The notes beneath the pieces were generated by a model, which did no database searches, was not told where the DNA came from, and worked only from the letters and a program-made list of their open reading frames with translations. A stretch of DNA of 39,196 bases from a virus. Its lineage: Duplodnaviria; Caudoviricetes. The stretch spans positions 1-39,196 of the IMG/VR virus record IMGVR_UViG_3300038608_000019, one strand, 5' to 3'. Position 1 is the first letter of the stretch, and the number at the start of each line of letters is the position of its first letter. The translations under genes were made by a program, and so were the position numbers. Below, piece after piece: positions 1 through 39,196 of the stretch.

Positions 1-9
1 GTGTAAAAA

Positions 10-477
10 ATGGGAGCGAATCGAAAATCATCGGCAGAAAAGATAGCGGCGGGTAACCCCGGAAAGCGTAAACTGCCTGCGGAAACCGATGTTCAGGTTA
101 TCACGTCCGCGCGGGCACCGGCTGGCATGGGCAATGCCGAAAAACGGTACTGGCATCGGTATGCAAAGCCGATGATTGATGCCGGGATGCTGACGGAGCT
201 TAATGTCAGCGACCTTACACGGCTTTGCAAATTCGAGGCTACCCTTGACTCAATGCTTGAACTTATGGCCAATACTGTGGGGTCTATGGTGCAGGAAAAA
301 AAGAATTATCACGGCGAAGTGGTTGACCTCGTGGAGAGCACCTACTCCAAAATTGCCCGGAATTACGCAGCTACGATCCGGAACCTAAAAGCTGATCTGA
401 AGCTTCGAACAGACAAGATGGCAGGATCATTTACGCCGAAGCAAAAGTCGAAGCCAAACGAATTTGAGGGATTCTAG
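10..477 (+). CDS. terS: terminase small subunit (P27-like)
   Basis: N-terminal GNPGKR motif, 'W...L..G.LT.L' core, upstream of terL. Confidence 0.85.
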   Translation: MGANRKSSAEKIAAGNPGKRKLPAETDVQVITSARAPAGMGNAEKRYWHRYAKPMIDAGMLTELNVSDLTRLCKFEATLDSMLELMANTVGSMVQEKKNYHGEVVDLVESTYSKIARNYAATIRNLKADLKLRTDKMAGSFTPKQKSKPNEFEGF

Positions 478-482
478 CTGGC

Positions 483-1241
483 ATGTCTGATTATCCAAAA
501 ACAGCCCTTCAATACTGCATTGACGTAACCTCTGGTAAAATACCAGCCGTTAAATATTGCTCAAAATGCGGAAATGCAAGGCCACATAGTGAATTTAAAA
601 AAAATAAAGGGCACAAAGACGGGCTTGAATCATCATGTAGAGATTGTCTTAAAGAATATAACAAAATCTATCGTTTTGCCAATAAGGAAAGAATGTCATA
701 CCTAAGCAGACAATGGAAGATTAAAAATAAAGAAAAGCATCTTGCTGGATCAAAAGCATGGAGAGAAAATAACCCGGAGAGACAAAAAGAAAATACTGAA
801 AGGTGGCGGAAAAATAATCCCGATAAAGTAAAAGCAATTAAAAAAAGATGGTATATGCGAAACCCAGAAAAAGTTAGAATGAATACCAGAATAACTGGCG
901 CACGATTAAGAGCAACTCCTTCTGGCAAATTAAAAAGAAATATGGGAATGATGATGTATCAATCTCTTAAAGGCAGAAAGATGGGCAGGCATTGGGAAAA
1001 CTTAGTTGGGTATAATATAGAAAAACTTAAACTACACCTTGAAAATCTCTTTAAGCCAGGGATGCTTTGGGAGAATTACGGAAAGGGTGGTTGGGAGGTT
1101 GACCACATAATACCAGTTGCGAGCTTTGATTTTGATTGTGAAGATAATATTAAGAAATGTTGGGCGTTAAATAACTTACAGCCACTATGGAGTCGCGAAA
1201 ATAAGATCAAAGGCAAGAAAGTCTATGCAGAAAGATTATGA
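483..1241 (+). CDS. free-standing HNH endonuclease whose first ~22 aa resemble the TerL N-terminus
   Basis: CxxC...CxxC finger, W-R/K-x-x-N helical repeats, C-terminal WEVDHIIP...NLQPLW..EN HNH motif; AT-rich. Confidence 0.85.
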   Translation: MSDYPKTALQYCIDVTSGKIPAVKYCSKCGNARPHSEFKKNKGHKDGLESSCRDCLKEYNKIYRFANKERMSYLSRQWKIKNKEKHLAGSKAWRENNPERQKENTERWRKNNPDKVKAIKKRWYMRNPEKVRMNTRITGARLRATPSGKLKRNMGMMMYQSLKGRKMGRHWENLVGYNIEKLKLHLENLFKPGMLWENYGKGGWEVDHIIPVASFDFDCEDNIKKCWALNNLQPLWSRENKIKGKKVYAERL

Positions 1242-9037: not shown

Positions 9038-9742
9038 ATGAGAACAATTAAAAACCAGTGGCAAAAAGGGGCAGGTATAACGAAAGAAATTCTTTCTGAC
9101 ATGTATCTAACTCAAAAAATGAGCAACGTGGAAATAAGTAGGCATTTTGATGTCACCCCGCAGACAATATACTATAAAATGAAGAGTTTTGGTATAAAAA
9201 GTAGGCCACGAGGAGGGAATTTAAGCGGGCAAATATTCGGAAGATGGACCATTATTAAAAGAGCTGGAAAGAATAAAAGGGGAAGTACTCTTTGGCTGTG
9301 TCATTGTGCATGTGGCAATGAAGGATATGTCATAACTTCAGCGTTGAAGAATGGTTCTTCTAAGAGTTGCGGATGTCTAAAATCAGATTCAGCGAGAATG
9401 AGAAGTGGTATAGCCCATCCATCTTATAAAAATGGACGCACATATAAGGAGGGGTATATAATAATTTTGGATAGGACGCACCCCAATGCTAATAAATACG
9501 GGAAGGTTTCAGAACACGTTATGGTAATGTCAAAATATCTCGGTAGGGCAATAATTCCCGGGGAAACCGTGCATCATAAAAATGGGATAAGAGACGATAA
9601 CCGTATAGAAAATCTTGAACTCTGGGGTGGAAAACACCCTCCTGGGACAAAAGTTTCCGATATGGTTGATTTTTGTGTTGAATACTTAAAACAATATGCT
9701 CCCCATAAATTGGAAAAGGAGGGGCCATGCGCATACAGTTAA
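9038..9742 (+). CDS. free-standing HNH endonuclease (HTH + Zn ribbon + HNH_3)
   Basis: WLCHCACG...SKSCGC; EH.MVM..YLGR...[21 protein letters not shown]; AT-rich. Confidence 0.9.
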
Positions 9743-21473: not shown

Positions 21474-22190
21474 TTGGATAGAAAAAATAATGGGCAAATT
21501 AAGAAAGGGAATATTCCATGGAATAAGGGTAAGCCTTTGTCTGAAGAGCACAAACAAAAATTAAGCCTTTCCCACAAAGGTAAGATATTAAGTGCGGAAA
21601 CGAGACAAAAAATAAGTGCAAAAACTAAAGGAGATAAAAATCCATTTTTTGGTAAAAAGCACGATGAAAACACTCGGAAAAGGATGAGTATCAATAGTAA
21701 AGGGAAGGGTAAAGGGAATACTCATGGATTTAAAAAAGATCATATCCCATGGAATAAAGGTCTTAAAAATCACCTACCGGAAGAAACTATCTTGAAAATG
21801 AGCGAAGTCCATAAAGATAAACCAGGATATTGGACTGGGAAAAAGAGGAATTTTACAAAGGAATGGATAAGGAATGCTTTGCGAAGAAGAATTCCCACAT
21901 CGCTTGAAACGAAATTTCAAGATATAATAGATAAATATAATCTTCCGTATAAATTTGTTGGCGATGGGTCTTTTATGATAGGAAGGAAAAATCCTGATTT
22001 TATCAATATAAATGGAGACAAAACAGCAGTGGAGGTATATGCTAAATATTATAAATTGAAGCATGAAAAAACTATAGATATTTGGAAAAAAGAGCGAAGT
22101 GCAGTCTTTGCTGAATATGGATGGATGTTATATTATTTTGATGAAACGCAAGTAAACGAAAAAAATATATTAAATATATTAGGAGGGTGA
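21474..22190 (+). CDS. NUMOD3-repeat endonuclease with Vsr/DUF559-like nuclease domain
   Basis: PWNKG repeats, SEEHKQKLS, G.KNPFFGKKH; PTSLE...PDF...AVEV; strongly AT-rich; TTG start uncertain. Confidence 0.8.
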   Translation: MDRKNNGQIKKGNIPWNKGKPLSEEHKQKLSLSHKGKILSAETRQKISAKTKGDKNPFFGKKHDENTRKRMSINSKGKGKGNTHGFKKDHIPWNKGLKNHLPEETILKMSEVHKDKPGYWTGKKRNFTKEWIRNALRRRIPTSLETKFQDIIDKYNLPYKFVGDGSFMIGRKNPDFININGDKTAVEVYAKYYKLKHEKTIDIWKKERSAVFAEYGWMLYYFDETQVNEKNILNILGG

Positions 22191-24759: not shown

Positions 24760-24905
24760 ATCCGTATGAATGGTGGTTAAAGGTAGTCGAAATGTGGATG
24801 AACTTGGCCTTTGAGGTAAATGCCTTGCGAAACTGCCATAACCAGAACAAAAGTGAACTGACAAAGATTAAAGAACTGTTGATTAGGGAGGGACTTTGGA
24901 AATGA
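24756..24905 (+). CDS. 49-aa hypothetical lysis-cassette protein (MNPYEWWLKVVEMWMN...)
   Basis: AAGGAGG RBS; ATGA overlaps at both ends. Confidence 0.55.
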   Translation: MNPYEWWLKVVEMWMNLAFEVNALRNCHNQNKSELTKIKELLIREGLWK

Positions 24906-25240
24906 ATAATTTTGATATTCGGGAATTTGATTGTAAATGTTGTGGCGAGAATAAAATGGAACCGGAGTTTCTCAAAAAACTTGATGAGGCAAGAGATATA
25001 GCTGGCATTCCGTTTGTCATAAGTTCGGGATATAGGTGCTTGAAACACAATAAAGAAGTTGGTTCAACGTCTACTAACCATACTCTTGGAGTGGCAAGTG
25101 ATATACGATGCACAAACGGGCCGGCAAGATTTAAAATCATTAAGGCATTGATAGAGGTAGGATTTTCACGAATCGGGGTGGCAAAAACATTTATCCATTG
25201 TGATGCAAATATGCTACCCTCATCTATCTGGTTTTATTAG
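24902..25240 (+). CDS. endolysin, peptidase M15 family
   Basis: EF.CKCCG, ISSGYRC..HN..VG, H..G.A.DI, FIH.D. Confidence 0.9.
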   Translation: MNNFDIREFDCKCCGENKMEPEFLKKLDEARDIAGIPFVISSGYRCLKHNKEVGSTSTNHTLGVASDIRCTNGPARFKIIKALIEVGFSRIGVAKTFIHCDANMLPSSIWFY

Positions 25241-25250
25241 GAGGTTTATC

Positions 25251-25673
25251 ATGGGAATTGAAGCTATATTAGCGTTGGTATCATTGGTCATTCCACCGGC
25301 TTTTGATTTTGTTAAGAAGAAATTCTTGAAGCCGTCACAGGATACGCCAGAAGCGACTATGGCAGCACTGGCGACGACCAAGCCGGAAGTTATGGGAGAA
25401 TACCTTAAAGGTCAGGCAGGTCTGCTGGAGGCCAAAACAAAGTATTTCAATCGGGACGTTTGCGGAGTCCCTACTCAGTGGGTCATAAATCTTCGTGCTT
25501 CCATTCGCCCTATCGGTGTCATAATGGCCTTCATTATCCTTTCAGGCATGGCGTATTTGGCCTTCAACGATTACACATTCTCGGCAGAAATGAAAAGCAC
25601 CGTTGACGGTGTAAGATATGCTTGTGTTGTTATTATGGCCTCGTGGTTCGGCGACCGTTTGAGTGAAGACTAG
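25251..25673 (+). CDS. putative holin (3TM-like)
   Basis: Three hydrophobic segments, LRA.IRP and WFGDR motifs, follows endolysin. Confidence 0.7.
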   Translation: MGIEAILALVSLVIPPAFDFVKKKFLKPSQDTPEATMAALATTKPEVMGEYLKGQAGLLEAKTKYFNRDVCGVPTQWVINLRASIRPIGVIMAFIILSGMAYLAFNDYTFSAEMKSTVDGVRYACVVIMASWFGDRLSED

Positions 25674-25695
25674 CCATATCAACTAAAAGCGTTGC

Positions 25696-25740
25696 AGGCC
25701 CGCACCAGACTTAGGGTCTTGGTGGTAGTATGCGTGGCTT
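25696..25740. terminator. hairpin between convergent operons
   Basis: cacca-gac-ttagg-gtc-t-tggtg stem; no U tract. Confidence 0.35.
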
Positions 25741-25742
25741 GT

Positions 25743-26117
25743 TCATTTCTCTTCCTCCCATCCATAGAACTCTGCCGCCAGTTTACACCTACTTTCATAG
25801 TCGTCGTCACCAAGACAGAAAAGCCATGCATCAAATATTTCTGTTGTCGGAACATCTTTATAATATTTGAAGACAAAATCAGCAAATCTTGTCCACTTCC
25901 TGTCTTTATAAATCGCTCTGTAAAGTTCCATCATATCGTTGAGATAATTAAATGCACGATTTCTTCGATGGATATGTTCATCAAGCGTTTCTCTGGGCCA
26001 TCTACACTCTCGACCGCATATACATTTTTGGCCAAGATATGCACCGTTGCTTTCGTGCCAAACTTCGTGAAGAATATTCTCGGTTAGAAACTTTTTCCAG
26101 TTCATTTCTTCGAGCAT
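25743..26117 (-). CDS. hypothetical protein, distant paralog of the next two ORFs
   Basis: F..LND......W..F.....AWL pattern; AGGAGG RBS. Confidence 0.65.
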   Translation of the reverse strand: MLEEMNWKKFLTENILHEVWHESNGAYLGQKCICGRECRWPRETLDEHIHRRNRAFNYLNDMMELYRAIYKDRKWTRFADFVFKYYKDVPTTEIFDAWLFCLGDDDYESRCKLAAEFYGWEEEK

Positions 26118-26154
26118 ACATCCTCCTGATCACAAAGAGATTTGTGAAGTATTT

Positions 26155-26448
26155 TCATTTCTTTTCCTCCTTCATCCACTTAGCCATAGCCGTGAAAAAA
26201 TTATCAGAATCATAAAGCCATGCAAGAAGCTGACTCCATGTATTGAACCGCTTGCTTGTGTCTGCCTCAACATGGGTTACGAAATCAGCCCAATCCCTAC
26301 GCCTTTTCATTTCCTTGGCACATAGTCCGGCATCGTTGAGATCAAAATCAACCAATACTATTCCGGAATCGTCCTCCCTCCACCAATTTAACACAGTTGT
26401 TTCCCATCCCATATATTCCCTTATTAATTCCTTGTCTTCGTTATTCAT
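26155..26448 (-). CDS. hypothetical protein (paralog pair)
   Basis: EDK.LI..YMGW...FDLN.AG.C..EM.RR..W...AWLYD.DNFFTAMA.W. Confidence 0.75.
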   Translation of the reverse strand: MNNEDKELIREYMGWETTVLNWWREDDSGIVLVDFDLNDAGLCAKEMKRRRDWADFVTHVEADTSKRFNTWSQLLAWLYDSDNFFTAMAKWMKEEKK

Positions 26449-26768
26449 CCCTTTTCCTCCTTCAACCAGGCTGCCATAGCCGTGAAAAAATTATCAGCAT
26501 CGTAAAGCCATGCGGTAAATCCTGCCTGCAAAAAACAATCCTTTGAGTATTTATCGACAGTGAATCTATGAAACGCAACCCAATTTCTGCGTCTCTGCAT
26601 CTCCTCAACACATGCTCCGGCAGCGTTGAGATCAAAGTAAATATTCCTAAGGCCGTTATCGCAAGTTGTAAAAACGAAATCTTCCTGCATGTTGAAAACG
26701 TGTGCAACATGAGTTCTCGTCCGCCATCCCATGTAGTCACCAATCAATTTTTTGTCCTCATTTGTCAT
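26445..26768 (-). CDS. hypothetical protein (paralog pair)
   Basis: Same motifs as 26155-26448; ATGA-coupled. Confidence 0.75.
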   Translation of the reverse strand: MTNEDKKLIGDYMGWRTRTHVAHVFNMQEDFVFTTCDNGLRNIYFDLNAAGACVEEMQRRRNWVAFHRFTVDKYSKDCFLQAGFTAWLYDADNFFTAMAAWLKEEKG

Positions 26769-26810
26769 ATTTATACCCTTTCAATTCTTTTTGTTTCTCT
26801 TCATCGATAA

Positions 26811-26963
26811 TCATTTCTTTTCCTCCTTAAACGGGCAGTTTTTTTCTGTGCAGACTTCAAAATCGTTTACTGTGCATGATGTCTTTTTTCGCCCGTAGTA
26901 TGGGATATATTTAAGCGGACAATTTTTCCGATCTGTTCTGATTATAACCTTAAAGTTTTTCAT
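26811..26963 (-). CDS. 50-aa Cys-containing hypothetical protein
   Basis: MKNFKVIIRTDRKNCP...C...C...CPFKEEKK; ATGA overlaps. Confidence 0.55.
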   Translation of the reverse strand: MKNFKVIIRTDRKNCPLKYIPYYGRKKTSCTVNDFEVCTEKNCPFKEEKK

Positions 26964-27175
26964 TTTCTGCCCTCCTTTGTCCAGTACCATACACCATGCA
27001 ACATTACTGCTTCGGAAAAAGGATGCGGTTTAGCATCTGATGGGACGTACTCCCACCACTCGCGGCTTGCCGAGACAACTGCGCCTTTTCCCGGCAATAG
27101 CCAGCGCCATCTCCCGCTTTCCTTGATATACGTTGGCTGCGGGTCAACTTTCACTAATTTAATTTCTTCTTTCAT
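26960..27175 (-). CDS. Trp-rich hypothetical protein
   Basis: AAGGAGG RBS, ATGA coupling. Confidence 0.6.
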   Translation of the reverse strand: MKEEIKLVKVDPQPTYIKESGRWRWLLPGKGAVVSASREWWEYVPSDAKPHPFSEAVMLHGVWYWTKEGRK

Positions 27176-27429
27176 TCTCTTTCCTCCTTTGTTAGCCCAT
27201 CTGGATACCATTTAGGACAAGCCTTATGACAATTTATTTGCTCTCCCTTCATTTCGCAGTATGTGTCTATATTAACTACATGAGCATTCTCGCAGTTCCC
27301 GCAGCACTTGAGATCATTGACAATATCTTCAAGTTCTTTTGCTTGCCTGATAAATTCGTCCATCTTCCATTCATCAGGCCGATCTATTCTCCATTGCTTT
27401 AATTGTTCACTAAGATTAATAATTATCAT
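27172..27429 (-). CDS. hypothetical protein with C-terminal DLKCCGNC module
   Basis: Module shared with 27679-27921. Confidence 0.65.
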   Translation of the reverse strand: MIIINLSEQLKQWRIDRPDEWKMDEFIRQAKELEDIVNDLKCCGNCENAHVVNIDTYCEMKGEQINCHKACPKWYPDGLTKEERE

Positions 27430-27686
27430 ATTTCCTCTTTTTCAATAAAGCAAAAATCTGATAAAAAATTCTCTTTTGTTTTTTTTGATGTTATTTTAAA
27501 TACAAAGCCGCAGTGGGCACATGGTAAGGTCTGGAGATGTTTTGTTATCCCAGAGATTGTAATCATAAACACTGTTCCTGCAGGCATTTTACCGAGCTGA
27601 TTTCCTACAATTCTCGTTGACATAACATAATGGCCTTCCCAATCTTTAATTTTGGCTGGCGGGTCAATCTTATGGTAATTAATCAT
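27426..27686 (-). CDS. hypothetical protein with CxxC
   Basis: Coupled within operon, good RBS. Confidence 0.6.
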   Translation of the reverse strand: MINYHKIDPPAKIKDWEGHYVMSTRIVGNQLGKMPAGTVFMITISGITKHLQTLPCAHCGFVFKITSKKTKENFLSDFCFIEKEEI

Positions 27687-27921
27687 TTTCTTTCCCTCCT
27701 CCTTTCATATATACCCTCTCAATCCTTGTTAGCCCGTCTGAATACCAAAATTCACAGTAATGGCCCGGGCTATATCCATGCTTTGATCGGCAATCTCCAC
27801 GTGGTGTATAGTGTTTGCAGTTCCCGCAGCACTTTAAGTCATTTGCCTGTTGCTCAATGATGGGCATCTGTTCTTTCATGACTTCGATCAACGCCTTAAG
27901 CATTGCAATCTGGTTATCCAT
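27679..27921 (-). CDS. hypothetical protein with C-terminal DLKCCGNC module
   Basis: ATG 27921 (MDNQIAML); module shared with 27172-27429. Confidence 0.6.
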   Translation of the reverse strand: MDNQIAMLKALIEVMKEQMPIIEQQANDLKCCGNCKHYTPRGDCRSKHGYSPGHYCEFWYSDGLTRIERVYMKGGGKEND

Positions 27922-27925
27922 TTTC

Positions 27926-28102
27926 TTACCCCCCAAAAAGCCTGCGATATTCCTCGTGATAATCTGCCTGATATTGCCGGTAGTCGGCGTTTGTTGCGTA
28001 TCGCTCGCGCTGTTTGCGGTTGATCTCCACCCTGTTTGCCGCCCGATATTTCCGGGCCAGCTCAAGTTGCCTGGCCCGGTTTCTCTGGTAGTAGGTCATC
28101 AT
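27926..28102 (-). CDS. 58-aa Arg/Tyr-rich helical protein resembling endonuclease DNA-binding repeats
   Basis: MMTYYQRNRARQLELARKYRAANRVEINRKQRERY...; ATGA-coupled to ERF gene. Confidence 0.55.
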   Translation of the reverse strand: MMTYYQRNRARQLELARKYRAANRVEINRKQRERYATNADYRQYQADYHEEYRRLFGG

Positions 28103-28935
28103 TTACCCCACGCCGGGCAACCTACGAACTTCTCACACGCATTGCAAAATGCCCACGTATATGTCGTTTCCGGGTTGTCTGGGCACTGCCCGGGGGCCAT
28201 TTCAGTTGGTTTCGGGTCTGGAACGGCGGCGGCTGGCTCTTGTATTTTAGCCTTGACCACCTCGGCGCAGAGATAATCGTAAATACCCTTCTGGATATCG
28301 CGCGTGGACTCGCTACCGGTGATTTCGCGCAGAAAAGCCTTTATTTCCTCGTCTGTTTTGCCGGACTCTTTGGCGATTGTATAAAACCGCTTGCGCTGCT
28401 TGTCGCTGATAAGCACAGATTTGGCATTTTGGCTTGCGACGTTGCCCCGTGGCGAGTTTTCTTCTGGAGTTTGGCCGATTGTGTCGGGGATGTCATTGGG
28501 TTGTTTTGCACCATCATGTTTTGTATTGGTCTTCTTCCCAGTGGCTGCATTCCCGTCGTCGTCAACTTCGGCACAAATAGAAATAAACGATTGCAATGAA
28601 TACCGACGTAGATACGTTAAACATGAACCATAGGATTGTGGATCAGATTTTACCGGTTTCATTACAATTCTGCCCTCAAGCCACTCGCCAGATGAATGAC
28701 ATAGGCGTGTGTCCAGTCCGACCATATCAGGATGCTCGGTAAGAAACACGGGTGATTGGACTATACTCAAACCGTTATCCGTCAACGGTTTGCGACATGC
28801 TTCCCATATTGACGATAGATCGGCGTATTTTGATTTAAAAAATGGATTATCTGATTCCTTCTTGGCGTTCTCAATAACCGCCTGTGCCCTTGCTAATGCC
28901 TCTGCAAGCTTTCCGATAGTTTCTGATTGAATCAT
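28099..28935 (-). CDS. erf: ERF-family single-strand annealing protein
   Basis: NPFFKSKYADL, PQ.YGS.LTY.RRYSL, DDDGN. Confidence 0.92.
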   Translation of the reverse strand: MIQSETIGKLAEALARAQAVIENAKKESDNPFFKSKYADLSSIWEACRKPLTDNGLSIVQSPVFLTEHPDMVGLDTRLCHSSGEWLEGRIVMKPVKSDPQSYGSCLTYLRRYSLQSFISICAEVDDDGNAATGKKTNTKHDGAKQPNDIPDTIGQTPEENSPRGNVASQNAKSVLISDKQRKRFYTIAKESGKTDEEIKAFLREITGSESTRDIQKGIYDYLCAEVVKAKIQEPAAAVPDPKPTEMAPGQCPDNPETTYTWAFCNACEKFVGCPAWGK

Positions 28936-29049
28936 CTTGTGACCTCCTCTTTGCTTGCATCAGGGGTGGTTGCCCACCCCCTCCGCATCATACAACTTAT
29001 TAACCCCGGCTTTTCTTTATTTCCTGCTGGCCGGTGGCAGGGAATAAAC

Positions 29050-29340
29050 TCAACTTTTGATAGCTGCCTGAATTTCCTCGCTTATCATTTCCCTCACCAT
29101 ATCCTCAAGTGTAAAAGGAGTTACTTCTTCTACCTTTGATTCTTTAACGGCAGGAATTAAGCCATATTTATATCTGCAATCTTTGCACCATTCCCGGGTG
29201 AGTTGCATTTTTGGTTCACTGGCCCAGTGGGAATAATTGAGTTCACAGTTTCCAACAAATACTCCAACGCGATCAAGATCAATTTCATTGGTTGTGTCTT
29301 CTGCTCCACATTTGTCGCATTTGTATATTGTTGTTTTCAT
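29050..29340 (-). CDS. Zn-ribbon hypothetical protein
   Basis: YKCDKCG...WCKDC. Confidence 0.65.
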   Translation of the reverse strand: MKTTIYKCDKCGAEDTTNEIDLDRVGVFVGNCELNYSHWASEPKMQLTREWCKDCRYKYGLIPAVKESKVEEVTPFTLEDMVREMISEEIQAAIKS

Positions 29341-29379
29341 TCTGTTTTACTCCTTTCTTTTTTTATTATCACGTGGCGT

Positions 29380-29589
29380 TCATCCGGGTTCGTGCGCATC
29401 GGCCTCTTCGGCGCTTTGCCAAACACTACTGCGCGGGCAGCCCGCCACGTTTTTATATTCATTGTCTTCCTGTTCGCCATCATCAAGGGCTTTTTCTTTT
29501 TCCAGCGCCTCAATGTCGTAGCATTCCTGCGACTTTCGTCTGCCATATTCTGTGTTCAGATAACTGCAATCATGCGGATATAAGTTCAT
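29380..29589 (-). CDS. hypothetical protein
   Basis: AGGAGG RBS, ATGA-coupled. Confidence 0.45.
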   Translation of the reverse strand: MNLYPHDCSYLNTEYGRRKSQECYDIEALEKEKALDDGEQEDNEYKNVAGCPRSSVWQSAEEADAHEPG

Positions 29590-29786
29590 TTTGTTCCTCC
29601 TTTTTCGTAACACCTAAAACACATTGCCTGGTTTGCAATGTTCGTTTCTGGTTGCAATGAGTCACGCTTTAATGAGCAAACAGAATGTCGGCAAATAATC
29701 CAGTTTGGTCTTTTCCCGGTTGGCGAGATATTGTGAAAAAACTCATCTGGTTTTAGTTTCGTTTTCAAAGCCTCGGTACTTGTCAT
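29586..29786 (-). CDS. Cys-containing hypothetical protein
   Basis: ATGA coupling on both sides. Confidence 0.5.
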   Translation of the reverse strand: MTSTEALKTKLKPDEFFHNISPTGKRPNWIICRHSVCSLKRDSLQPETNIANQAMCFRCYEKGGTK

Positions 29787-30001
29787 TTCACGCCTCCCAA
29801 CTTTCTAAATTTATCTGCGATTTCTCTCATTTCTTCCGCCAATCGCATAAAGTCATTTTCACAATATGCCGGAGATTCATTCAACGCCTTTCTTTCCGTA
29901 TTTGTGACTTTCATGGCATCGGATTCTATCAATAACGCCTGTGCCTCGCATATCAGTGCATTAAATTCTGCTGACTTTTCGGATTCTGTCATTTCTTTCA
30001 T
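29783..30001 (-). CDS. hypothetical protein
   Basis: AAGGAGG RBS before ATG 30001. Confidence 0.6.
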   Translation of the reverse strand: MKEMTESEKSAEFNALICEAQALLIESDAMKVTNTERKALNESPAYCENDFMRLAEEMREIADKFRKLGGVK

Positions 30002-30051
30002 GGTGCCTCCTTTCTTAATTTTAGACACAAGTCTGGCCGTTCTCTCCGCAT

Positions 30052-30534
30052 CTATCTCCAATCAATTTCGTCTCTTGCTAATTTCCCAAGGTTGCAATCA
30101 CTACATAATATTTGTAAATTATTTTCATCTAACTCAAGTTCAGGATATTTAGACCTTGGTTTAATATGGTCAACATGTATTACAACGCCGTTTTCTTTGT
30201 AACTTCTACCGCATAATTGGCATCTGCCACCATATTTTCTCAAAACGTTATATCTTACTTTTCTCCATTCAACAGATTCATAAAAACTAATATTTTTTTG
30301 TTTTTGTTCTGTCTGAATTTTCATTATTTCATTATCAGAAAAGTAATTATGAATTTCCCTTTCTACTCTCTTGCGCGCTCTTTTTTTTATTTGACAATTT
30401 GCTAAGTTTTTGTCGTTGTCGTAAGTTTTCCCTAATGCTTTAGCAAAAGACGCCCAAGTATGTAGTATTTTTGGATCACCTTCTGACTTTTTAAGCATTG
30501 CAATAACACATGCTCTTGCTGTGGTTCTTTTCAT
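30052..30534 (-). CDS. HNH endonuclease
   Basis: FY.S.EWRKVRY.VL...GRCQLCG...IHVDHIKP...NLQILC..CNLGK; AT-rich. Confidence 0.9.
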   Translation of the reverse strand: MKRTTARACVIAMLKKSEGDPKILHTWASFAKALGKTYDNDKNLANCQIKKRARKRVEREIHNYFSDNEIMKIQTEQKQKNISFYESVEWRKVRYNVLRKYGGRCQLCGRSYKENGVVIHVDHIKPRSKYPELELDENNLQILCSDCNLGKLARDEIDWR

Positions 30535-30555
30535 TAGATACCTCCGGTTAGGTAG

Positions 30556-30620
30556 TGGTGTGGAAGGGGAACCGATTGAACCGGCAATCAGTAATTACGG
30601 ATTATAAGCCCAACCCTTCC
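30556..30620 (-). ncRNA. tRNA-like structured element
   Basis: GGAAGGG/CCCTTCC closing stem, GCCGG-TTCAA-TCGGT T-arm-like hairpin, 3' ACACCA; too short for a canonical tRNA. Confidence 0.3.
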
Positions 30621-30663
30621 ATAATTCATGTGTTTAATTTTCCACTTTTTGTCAAGTATTTTT

Positions 30664-31221
30664 TTAATACCACTGCTCCGCCATGGCTTCCGCTATTCCT
30701 TGGTATGTGCGCGACCTGTTTTTCCACCTGTCAGGGCTTGGCGGTTCTTTCCAACATTTTTGTTCTCTTCCTTCAACAATGTTTGTTGGTTTCAGCTTCG
30801 GCAGCCCCTTAAGCCATAAACATGTTGCCTTTTGATAGGGATCGCCGAACCAATAGGGTTGAATAATCTGATCGGGCCGGCGGTAAATAGTGCTCATGAT
30901 TCCTATCGGGTTTTCTATCGCTATTTTTCCAATAGGCGCCTCAACCAGGCGCATAAAGAAATCTATTCCCTGTTTCTGCCTCCCATCCGCACGCTTTTCG
31001 ACAAACCAACGGGCTCCGGACACAGCAAGATGTGTGCAAGGAGGATGGAAAATTCCCAGATCAAACTTTTCTTTTTTTAATACCTCAAAAATATCTTCCT
31101 GAAAATGCCACTGCGGATTGCCCTCTGTTGGAAGTAAATCACAAGAATATGCCTCATGTCCCCTGTTTCTAAAGGCCATAGTTACAATCTGACTAAATTC
31201 ACAGCCTATCAGAACTCTCAT
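30664..31221 (-). CDS. short phage DNA cytosine-5 methyltransferase-like protein
   Basis: VLIGCEFS, SCDLLP, HPPCT, IENP, K.TCLWLK.LP, RS.TY.GIA.AMA.QW. Confidence 0.8.
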   Translation of the reverse strand: MRVLIGCEFSQIVTMAFRNRGHEAYSCDLLPTEGNPQWHFQEDIFEVLKKEKFDLGIFHPPCTHLAVSGARWFVEKRADGRQKQGIDFFMRLVEAPIGKIAIENPIGIMSTIYRRPDQIIQPYWFGDPYQKATCLWLKGLPKLKPTNIVEGREQKCWKEPPSPDRWKNRSRTYQGIAEAMAEQWY

Positions 31222-31236
31222 CTCCTCACCATTTTT

Positions 31237-31413
31237 TCAAATCCACTTTGCGATCATGGTCAAGACGCTCGCAGCCACCAGGACAGCCATGATCCCAAGA
31301 AATACTTTTCCCGCCCTGCTGACCGGCTGGTCAAGCCATGCGTCCATTTTGTTAAGCTCAACAAAATGGTTATTCAGTTTCAGCATTTTCCACGGTTTTT
31401 TCATTGCTTTCAT
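31237..31413 (-). CDS. 58-aa protein with C-terminal TM
   Basis: ...GKVFLGIMAVLVAASVLTMIAKWI; ATGA-coupled. Confidence 0.55.
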   Translation of the reverse strand: MKAMKKPWKMLKLNNHFVELNKMDAWLDQPVSRAGKVFLGIMAVLVAASVLTMIAKWI

Positions 31414-31661
31414 CCTTTCCGGATCAATCTTGCCACCCTGTCGGAAGCTTCAAGTTCTTCGGCAGTTTCATCCTTTTTGTCTTGCTTTTTGAAAATCAAA
31501 ATACTTGTGTCTTCATCAAAACTGATCCGGCCTACCCCTGCTAATGGGTCTTCCAGTTTGTCAAACGCCGGCCTAAGTTTCTCAAACAATTCCGGATCAA
31601 CATCGTGTATACCTATTTCCCGATTACCTCCAGAGTATGCCCACATTGATAATGTCTTCAT
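31410..31661 (-). CDS. hypothetical protein, first gene of the leftward early operon
   Basis: GAGGAGG RBS downstream of consensus promoter. Confidence 0.6.
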   Translation of the reverse strand: MKTLSMWAYSGGNREIGIHDVDPELFEKLRPAFDKLEDPLAGVGRISFDEDTSILIFKKQDKKDETAEELEASDRVARLIRKG

Positions 31662-31689
31662 CTCACCCTCCTCTTGTTATTTTTATCTC

Positions 31690-31857
31690 TTCGCTTGTGG
31701 TGGCCAATCCACCCCCTAAAGTTTCCGCCTCTGCCAGCTTCGAGAGCGGAACGTCCTTTGCGGCTTACTGCGGCTTAACGAGTAGGCGCTTTGCCTGTTA
31801 TGCCCTGCCGGGCGCTCAAGCCTGAAGCCAGGAGCTTCGGGGTGTTGCTATGTTTCG
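31690..31857 (-). ncRNA. structured 5' leader of the leftward transcript
   Basis: Successive hairpins gaagc/gcttc, gccc/gggc, ttccgc-tct/aga-g-gcggaa, gtgg/ccac. Confidence 0.4.
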
Positions 31858-31862
31858 TGGGT

Positions 31863-31890
31863 ATTATACGCCTATTTTCTGGTATGTCAA
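31863..31890 (-). promoter_or_regulatory. leftward sigma70 promoter
   Basis: TTGACA-16 nt-TATAAT, both hexamers perfect consensus. Confidence 0.8.
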
Positions 31891-31936
31891 ACATTATTTA
31901 CAAAAAAGTAAAAAACATTTCACTTAAAAGCCACTA

Positions 31937-31965
31937 TTGACAAAAATGCAAAAATATTATAGTAT
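31937..31965 (+). promoter_or_regulatory. rightward sigma70 promoter
   Basis: TTGACA-17 nt-TAGTAT with AT-rich upstream tract. Confidence 0.65.
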
Positions 31966-37153: not shown

Positions 37154-38483
37154 AGCATATGACGCGCATGCGTCACGGGTAATGCCGCACGACGAACAGG
37201 CTGAAATGGCTATTATCGGATCGATGTTATACGACAATGAGTGTATTGATAACGTACATTTATCTCCTGATGATTTTTACTCGACGGCAAATAAAATAAT
37301 ATTTACGGCAATTATGGATATTGTGAACAGTGGCCGTGTTGCTGATTTAGTAACGGTTTGCGAAGGTATTTCAACAGCAGGAAATATGAAAAAATGCGGT
37401 GGCCCGGCGTATATCTCTGAGACAATAGATGCTGTCATTTCTCCGGCATCTGTCGGATCATACGAGCAGATCGTCAGGGAAAAATCTATTGAGCGCCAGA
37501 TAATTGCGGAGTCTCAGAGAATGATTGAAGCTGTTTATGATCCATCAGAAAACAGCAAGACAAAACTCGAAGAAGCTCAAAAAACGATATTGAATTTATC
37601 GTTGACCAAAGGATCAGATACACTTCAAAACGCAAGAGAAATTTGCAAGAAAACATTCGCCGGGATTGAATATCGCTATCAAAACAAATTCTCCCTGATT
37701 GGGCATCCAACAGGACTTTGCGACTTGGATTCAGCAACTTCCGGACTGATTTCTGGTGACCTGATCATCATAGCAGGCCGCCCAGGCATGGGAAAGTCAG
37801 CGTTGGCCGATAATATCGCGGCAACGGTGGCAGCAAGTGGAGTATCGGTACTACTGTTTAGCTTGGAGATGCCGGCTGAATCTGTTATGACCAGGATCAT
37901 CTCTCGGGAGTCGGGGATCAATTCGCGAATCCTCAGAAGGGGGCAATTAGCCGAAACACAATGGTCATCAGCTGTCCATGCTACGGAATCAATATCGCAC
38001 TGGCCTATTTTTATAGACGACAGAGCAGATATTACACTTACGGAAATCAGGGCTAAAGCGCGTAAATTAAAAAAAGAACAGGGGTTGGGTCTTTTGATCG
38101 TCGATTACATTCAGCTTGTCTGCCCTGCTGGGAAACATGAAAGTCGGGAACAGGCAGTTGCAGAGATCAGCAGGACGCTAAAGGCGATTGCACGCGAATT
38201 AGCGATCCCAGTCATCGGGTTGAGCCAACTGAATCGTCAGGTTGACAGCAGGCCAAACAAGCGGCCAATGCTTTCCGATCTCAGGGAATCCGGTGCCATC
38301 GAGCAGGACGCGGATATTATAATATTTATTTATAGGGACGAAATTTATAACAAAGCAGAGGATAATCCACATCGGGGAATCGCGGAAATAGATATTGCCA
38401 AGCACCGCAACGGGGAAACAGGGCGGTTTGATGTCATTTTTGACGCACGGACGCAGCATTTCAAAAATAAGGCACGAATATAA
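37131..38483 (+). CDS. dnaB: replicative DNA helicase
   Basis: AGRPGMGKS, FSLEM, IVDYIQL, LSQLNR, DLRESGAIEQDAD, KHRNG. Confidence 0.97.
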   Translation: MENQTKYKAYDAHASRVMPHDEQAEMAIIGSMLYDNECIDNVHLSPDDFYSTANKIIFTAIMDIVNSGRVADLVTVCEGISTAGNMKKCGGPAYISETIDAVISPASVGSYEQIVREKSIERQIIAESQRMIEAVYDPSENSKTKLEEAQKTILNLSLTKGSDTLQNAREICKKTFAGIEYRYQNKFSLIGHPTGLCDLDSATSGLISGDLIIIAGRPGMGKSALADNIAATVAASGVSVLLFSLEMPAESVMTRIISRESGINSRILRRGQLAETQWSSAVHATESISHWPIFIDDRADITLTEIRAKARKLKKEQGLGLLIVDYIQLVCPAGKHESREQAVAEISRTLKAIARELAIPVIGLSQLNRQVDSRPNKRPMLSDLRESGAIEQDADIIIFIYRDEIYNKAEDNPHRGIAEIDIAKHRNGETGRFDVIFDARTQHFKNKARI

Positions 38484-38494
38484 GGAGGCCGACG

Positions 38495-38671
38495 ATGACG
38501 ATTGAAGAAAAAGAATTGTTGAAGCGTAGAATATACATGAAAAAACAACTAATTGAATTAACGCAAGATGAAATTAAGAAATTGGAAGAAGCTCTTGAAG
38601 AGCAGGAAGGGATGAACAATGACCGCACAAGAGAATGCCGCGATACTGCTTCTGGCCGAAGCGCTGAATAA
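38495..38671 (+). CDS. 58-aa coiled-coil hypothetical protein
   Basis: AAGGAGG RBS; MTIEEKELLKRRIY... Confidence 0.55.
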   Translation: MTIEEKELLKRRIYMKKQLIELTQDEIKKLEEALEEQEGMNNDRTRECRDTASGRSAE

Positions 38672-38739
38672 GTGAGGTGATCACGCCTGCCAGGTCCTTG
38701 CATCTGAATGGACGACTAAAAACGAAAGGAGGCAACCAC

Positions 38740-38847
38740 ATGAAAAACGTACTCAAAATAGCATTAGGGATACTTATAGCTGTACCACTCGCAATTGCAG
38801 GCTTTCTGTTGTTGTGTTATATTGCATATCGGTTTCCGATGCAATGA
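38740..38847 (+). CDS. 35-aa single-TM protein
   Basis: AAGGAGG RBS; MKNVLKIALGILIAVPLAIAGFLLLCYIAYRFPMQ; ATGA-coupled to HNH. Confidence 0.6.
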   Translation: MKNVLKIALGILIAVPLAIAGFLLLCYIAYRFPMQ

Positions 38848-39176
38848 AACCCCTTAAACCATGCAAGCATCCCGGCTGCCGGAAATTGTCGCAAACCGGC
38901 TACTGTGAAGAGCATCAAAAAGTGGTTGAAAAAAACTATAGAAACAGGCAAGATGAAAAACGGGGGACAGCTACGGAGCGGGGATATACTTGGAATTGGC
39001 ACAAAGTGAGAAACATGAAGCTGTCGGAGAATCCGCTATGTGAACGCTGTGAGAAGAACGGGAAGATAACCATTGCCGTGTTGGTGCATCATCGGGATCG
39101 TAATCCGAGAAACAATTTAGAAGACAACCTGGAAAGCTTATGTGGCATGTGCCATCAGGAAGAACACAAGGTTTAA
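38844..39176 (+). CDS. packaging-associated HNH endonuclease (HK97 gp74-like)
   Basis: KPCKHPGC...YCEEH, RGY...W.K.R...L..NPLCE.C, VHH.D...NL.SLC..CH. Confidence 0.9.
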   Translation: MKPLKPCKHPGCRKLSQTGYCEEHQKVVEKNYRNRQDEKRGTATERGYTWNWHKVRNMKLSENPLCERCEKNGKITIAVLVHHRDRNPRNNLEDNLESLCGMCHQEEHKV

Positions 39177-39196
39177 ATCCACGCGCCCACGCGGGG
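39171..39196 (-). CRISPR. type I-C-like CRISPR repeat, truncated by the window end
   Basis: Minus strand CCCCGCGTGGGCGCGTGGATTTAAAC matches the 3' 26 nt of the recalled I-C-type repeat GTCGCGCCCCGCGTGGGCGCGTGGATTGAAAC with one mismatch. Confidence 0.75.

Follow-up and report, generated by a model that had tools for sequence, protein, structure and literature searches.

The window, that is the whole stretch of DNA analysed, is 39,196 nt long and corresponds to the whole viral record (G000). The genes run in the order terS, terL, portal, protease, capsid, tail and lysis, followed by an early block that is read leftward and by an HNH endonuclease gene, the last codons of which overlap a partial CRISPR repeat (Table 1). 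The early block carries an ERF recombinase, and methyltransferases, a replication initiator and DnaB are also encoded. The gene order has the layout of an HK97-like cos phage. Comparison of 60 ORFs with PHROGs matched neither an integrase nor a repressor family, and no cas gene was matched among these or among 24 and 21 ORFs compared with Pfam. No Acr-like gene was found near the repeat with PHROGs or Pfam, and Rfam gave 0 matches at the gathering score. The region of the leftward early block (24883-31940) also contains small unknown genes, in which motifs at gene starts recur and one pair of genes is duplicated (26154-26641). Further genes of HNH or endonuclease VII-like type, four in all, are found at 483-1241, 9038-9742, 21474-22190 and 30052-30534, one of them between terS and terL.

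Table 1. Position of the features discussed in the text, in window coordinates.
Feature	Position	Strand	Remarks
Small terminase (terS)	10..477	+	Contig begins 9 nt 5' of its ATG; 41 nt in relative L025
ERF single-strand annealing recombinase	28099..28935	-	Profile match
Packaging-type HNH endonuclease, 110 aa	38844..39176	+	Profile match, E=1e-16; ends ...HQEEHKV (stop)
Candidate protospacer/spacer, antisense to HNH 3' end	39135..39170	-	32-36 nt from array spacer lengths
PAM-equivalent position	39171..39173	+	L006/L039 read GAA, which is TTC on the minus strand; HNH Glu codon
Partial type I-C CRISPR repeat, 26/32 nt, 3' part in crRNA orientation	39171..39196	-	Variant at 39175

No terminal overlap of 5-199 nt is present between the window ends. 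Circular joining of the end to the start was considered and rejected on this ground, and the contigs X1 and X2 stop at 39194 and 39196. Relatives break in the same interval, L006 and L039 at 99 nt past the HNH motif and L025 before terS. These breaks are probably linear ends at cos and, with the position of cos taken from the relatives, the window would lie short of it. At the left end GAA is found at 37-39 after the first 36 nt, a faint indication that the left break could also be the start of a protospacer; spacers of 36 nt make up about 6% of the spacers counted.

The window terminus reads GTTTAAATCCACGCGCCCACGCGGGG. The sequence is identical at 25/26 nt to array copies of the repeat in three stretches (L001, L003 and L004), a match with a chance of about 7e-15 per repeat and site. 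With up to 3 mismatches allowed, the sequence has a single occurrence in the window and none in 100 shuffles. The 32-mer is held by at least 122 genome stretches, and in host genomes the identical 32-mer adjoins cas1c, cas7c/Csd2 and cas4, which point toward the array. Among the subtype proteins Cas1c exceeded the cut-off in both L282 and L112 and Cas7/Csd2 did so in L121, and Cas4 was matched as well; cas5d and cas8c were not seen among the 14 proteins scanned beside arrays. These genes and their direction assign the repeat to subtype I-C and make the minus strand the crRNA sense. The initial annotation had proposed a single I-C-type repeat matching at 25/26 nt and oriented as crRNA on the minus strand, with no cas genes and no second copy visible in the window, and it had suggested a match to host arrays as a check; on all these points it is borne out. 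The folding energy of the visible 26 nt is -8.3 kcal/mol (z -0.92), whereas a near-full copy reaches -14, and the complete stem cannot form in the sequence as seen because only 26/32 nt are present. In G001 a cas1/cas4 module of type V (L282:8682-11179) is encoded within a few kb of the adaptation genes of the I-C system.

The one differing base, A for C, creates the TAA (39174-39176) of the HNH ORF, as the initial annotation had also stated. The variant was found in 0/1,726 internal host copies, in 0/57 leader-side, 2/67 trailer-side and 1/51 edge copies, and in 0/308 and 0/144 further repeat copies. The exact 26-mer with the variant is in no GTDB contig, a looser variant pattern was found in 0/401 genomes, and no genome has the variant as its repeat consensus. 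The copy next to the candidate spacer consequently departs from the internal-repeat consensus. An in-frame stop arises from only 2/78 possible single changes, and the variant is one of them. Changes within the first 8 nt were found in 21/67 trailer copies, a count that includes a few N runs or sub-array starts, compared with 17/1,726 internal copies.

A host bearing a type I-C system is implied by the repeat subtype, in agreement with the initial annotation. The repeat is common to many phyla and therefore does not in itself name the host. The repeat family is found in 50/251 genomes of the order of a Smithella record, a 70% identical terL is found in 2/339 genomes, and the best matches to the HNH protein in 251 genomes of the order Syntrophales are at 36-40%. 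The phage host is likely a member of the Syntrophales. The contig of a 60.6-kb phage with DnaB and early genes in common with the window terminates in an array of 8 copies of this repeat (L004/G729:60070-60564), which may be real or chimeric.

The HNH protein retains the invariant C, H and N residues, and its position before cos and terS fits the class of packaging HNH endonucleases, of which HK97 gp74 is another cos-adjacent member. The C-terminal [DE]R motif and the tail of the homologues are lacking, and the protein stops two residues past the last conserved His. All homologue rows run beyond this stop (28/28); every one of them has D or E at +2, and 25 have R at +3. This alignment leaves out 5 of 31 non-self matches and the identical P0003, and two of its rows are one protein. 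The closest homologue continues with EDR, and Glu is found at the PAM-equivalent codon in 11/28 rows. Among HNH loci 0/97 aligned (of 99) stop within one codon of the stop in the window, in a comparison where positions are extrapolated and some contigs are duplicated. P0002, which belongs to the same 90% cluster as the HNH protein of the window, ends in EEHREDKKHWTA. An AlphaFold model of the full-length homologue P0008 has a helix at 101-119, with a pLDDT of 83 over residues 101-110 falling to 50 over residues 111-120, and because of this drop the model gives no answer on the importance of the missing [DE]R. By analogy with Skunavirus, in which the cos-adjacent HNH is reported as essential (PMC12967558), the HNH of the window belongs to a probably essential gene class.

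L006 and L039, the closest relatives with DNA sequence, show where the phage sequence is interrupted. They are 86% identical to the window over 222 nt up to 39169 and agree at 31/34 positions over the last 34 nt. Past 39169-39170 the relative reads GAA GAC AGG, where the window reads repeat instead. L006 and L039 are the same sequence, and the PAM rests on one independent DNA relative, which differs from the window at 3/34 spacer positions, the last one among them. GAA starts at 2.6% of window positions and at 10.8% of positions starting with G. TTC is described as the canonical I-C PAM (PMC8482600), and in the relative it lies on the strand and side where the repeat of an array would replace the PAM. 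Since the HNH gene is truncated exactly at the protospacer/PAM boundary, the join very probably corresponds to the boundary of repeat and spacer in a host array, and an origin of the preceding phage segment as a spacer target is the firmest conclusion drawn here from sequence comparison. No array holding this spacer was found in one metagenome scan and one viral scan, which gave only the intact relative, and 0/2,084 array spacers lay within 7 mismatches of the window; the host of the spacer may lie outside the collections searched. A partial 22/23 match from L121 did not extend and was rejected. A search for closer DNA relatives over the HNH-cos-terS interval gave three 97% DnaB relatives without HNH in the flank examined, and annotated phages gave no match across this region.

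The repeat at the contig end is interpreted as a piece of a host array, joined to the phage most likely by the assembler, an account that we hold at even confidence. A chimera through a host spacer, which the initial annotation had itself named as the scenario that would overturn its proposal, is the leading explanation, and as a feature of the phage the join is more likely not real. All such probabilities are judgements and shift considerably with the assumed rarity of the variant base. A host would have acquired a spacer of about 34 nt (about 39135-39170, minus strand) against the 3' end of the HNH gene. The true phage tail, which in L006 reaches the cos end after about 99 nt, would form a short dead end and be removed by tip clipping, the array path out of the shared spacer would then be the sole continuation, and the contig would halt inside the repeat. 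De Bruijn assemblers clip short dead ends before they remove weak cross-links.

The geometry of phage, repeat and contig end is found in 9/49 viral stretches with this repeat family and is reversed in 5, one cut locus (L302) being left out of the count. Among 12 frames scanned from 9 loci, one belongs to a portal gene interrupted after 112 aa (L293) and one to a major tail gene interrupted at its start (L283). L332, an identical twin of L293, continues with AAA, corresponding to a TTT PAM, and four other close relatives continue with AGA. Where joins of this kind fall in essential genes, they most plausibly arose during assembly. In L293/L333 it is a 3-repeat array at the contig end that cuts the portal gene. 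The contigs carrying the join of the window end 24 nt (X1) and 26 nt (X2) into the repeat, and the window terminates exactly with 21 nt common to it and the ordinary repeat. With k=31, stops at 24 and 26 nt are expected in 20% and 25% with 1,132 pooled spacers, and in 1.7% and 17% within a single array of about 50 spacers. The contig ends therefore fit a k=31 entry into a widely shared repeat, which supports the chimera. Several observations stand against it, among them the small number of single changes that give an in-frame stop, the failure to find an array with this spacer, and the single DNA relative behind the PAM. The k=31 account also requires many copies with variant A, which was seen in none of the internal copies, and X1 (depth 20.2) and X2 (19.1) share the join with no mismatch. 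In X1 and X2 no listed record leaves the phage at the ends of the spacer; contigs drop rare branches, and X1 or X2 may be the source of the window itself.

It is possible, at a lower probability than the assembler join, that the sequence is a real recombinant, in which a phage targeted by the host spacer recombined with the array through that spacer and a second time near cos, and the PAM together with about 65 nt was replaced by repeat DNA. A second crossover may have taken place at the microhomology CACG(C)GGGG, and a later C-to-A change would have closed the HNH frame. The protospacer, now flanked like "self", would give escape. This accounts jointly for the PAM-exact join and for the variant base, and the same join is present in three assemblies from two runs. 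L006 has CACGGGGG ending 34 nt before its end and the window ends in CACGCGGGG; the last nine bases of the window thus resemble CACGGGGG of the L006 tail, a motif found once elsewhere in the window. The left end of the window is 32 nt short of that of L025, so that a similar length would have been lost at both ends, and the contig of a relative in run X5 ends 67 nt past 39168, at about the same place. The similar losses and the X5 end fit a recombinant with a second crossover at the microhomology and cos kept. The encoded ERF recombinase could mediate recombination across homology of spacer length, recombination between spacer and protospacer has been reported (PMC8616872 and PMC10434264, citing Varble 2019), and it has been proposed that phages obtain leaderless mini-arrays in this way (PMC6858448). 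Against a real recombinant, the HNH is probably essential and is left without its conserved [DE]R, the second crossover would have to spare cos, no repeat-like sequence (up to 8 mismatches) was found in the 35 + 83 relative loci scanned, and assembly joins of the same shape occur in the same type of data.

The most far-reaching form of the recombinant reading is slightly less probable still. Here a wild cos phage would have escaped I-C immunity by recombination with an array that replaced the PAM with repeat, and the protospacer would be an in-place repeat-spacer unit, itself protected, which if transcribed leftward would aim Cascade at sister phages that keep the PAM. The suggestion in the initial annotation of a guide flanked by repeat rather than by PAM would hold only if the sequence is a real recombinant.

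The principal proposal of the initial annotation, in which a solitary repeat or the trailer copy of an array would act as a decoy for Cascade, is improbable. The repeat would have been gained independently, as a solitary copy or as the trailer of a mini-array, and a leftward RNA processed by Cas5d would serve as a decoy of the Racr kind or as a guide that targets sister phages. The only support from the sequence of the repeat itself is that trailer copies typically carry changes in the first 8 nt; many viral contigs contain a solitary I-C repeat in their interior, and I-C repeats can inhibit, as described for RacrIC1 (PMC10651486). An independent gain would require a chance hit on the PAM (2.6-11%) and would have to truncate the HNH gene; the join coincides with the TTC PAM of the relative. 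With 26/32 nt (81%) the copy overlaps a gene and lies at a contig end, where the definition of a solitary repeat unit (SRU) is an intergenic copy of at least 90% of the repeat length. No promoter-like site is present in window 1-600, neither of the two promoter-like sites in 38400-39196 would read the repeat in crRNA sense, and there is no Acr-like neighbour among the PHROGs and Pfam matches. The least probable reading by far is a prophage integrated into an array by a single crossover at the spacer, the window being that prophage, which agrees with the absence of integrase and repressor among the 60 ORFs and with the presence of ERF and predicts the same junction. Such a prophage would, however, run on through cos, yet the beginning of the contig lies only 9 nt ahead of terS and the relatives are broken in that interval too. 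Its spacer would also be present twice, so that k=31 contigs are expected to end near 39135, where X1 and X2 are unbroken.

Other viral contigs contain copies of the same repeat in different settings. Internal solitary copies are found in two phage contigs (L002:569-600 and L003:1496-1527), one of them just behind a head-decoration gene. In a transposase-like ORF (L295:1167-1269) an I-C repeat lies between the copies of a 34-nt direct duplication, the second copy being followed by GAA (TTC PAM). This layout of protospacer, repeat, protospacer and PAM may be an assembler loop or an integrated repeat-spacer circle, and it would pass as a solitary repeat.

Even as an artefact, the join shows a I-C host targeting this phage next to cos, and in that case it is a warning that repeats within metagenomic phage contigs or at their ends can be joins made by spacers. 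SRU and Racr candidates can be filtered simply by looking for a PAM at the junction in relatives. If the join is real, it would be a natural escape by copying of the "self" flank of the host and a snapshot of solitary repeats or mini-arrays entering phage genomes, and the proposed recombinational origin of phage-borne repeats would become directly testable.

The junction can be compared with several known systems. With the junction of a type I-C array (Cas1c/Cas4, TTC PAM; PMC8482600) it shares the repeat, the orientation, the seed end of the spacer beside the repeat, and TTC in the relative. In contrast to such an array the phage runs on for 39 kb, rather than for a spacer of 32-36 nt and the next repeat, and the variant base is absent from internal copies. 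With the cos-adjacent packaging HNHs (PDB 5H0M; Skunavirus HrdP, PMC12967558) the HNH of the window shares the place of last gene before cos and terS, the HK97-type head module and the profile match; it differs in ending two residues beyond the last conserved His.

As described, SRUs and Racrs lie between genes and have nearly the full length of the repeat, and they often follow a promoter and have acr genes nearby (PMC10651486). RacrIC1 is likewise one I-C repeat-like copy on a cas-less phage; the copy in the window differs in being partial, in truncating a gene, in coinciding with both a PAM boundary and the end of a contig, and in that no promoter or acr gene was found with it. Virus-borne mini-CRISPR arrays also place a repeat of host type on a virus and could target sisters with self protected (PMC6858448). 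Unlike in these, no second repeat or leader is seen, no further repeat is present on the phage side of 39171 within the window, and the "spacer" is the end of a gene of the phage itself, in place.

Among the papers listed by literature searches there was none on the replacement of a phage PAM by repeat DNA or on chimeric phage contigs made by a spacer, and Watson 2018 (PMC5821089) treats generalized transduction and not spacer recombination. The closest parallel is spacer-mediated recombination between phage and CRISPR locus (Varble 2019, as presented in PMC8616872 and PMC10434264), in which phage DNA is also joined to an array through a spacer; that case differs from the window in being the transfer of a CRISPR locus in staphylococci. 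If real, the join in the window would be a new variant of this already known recombination between phage and array.
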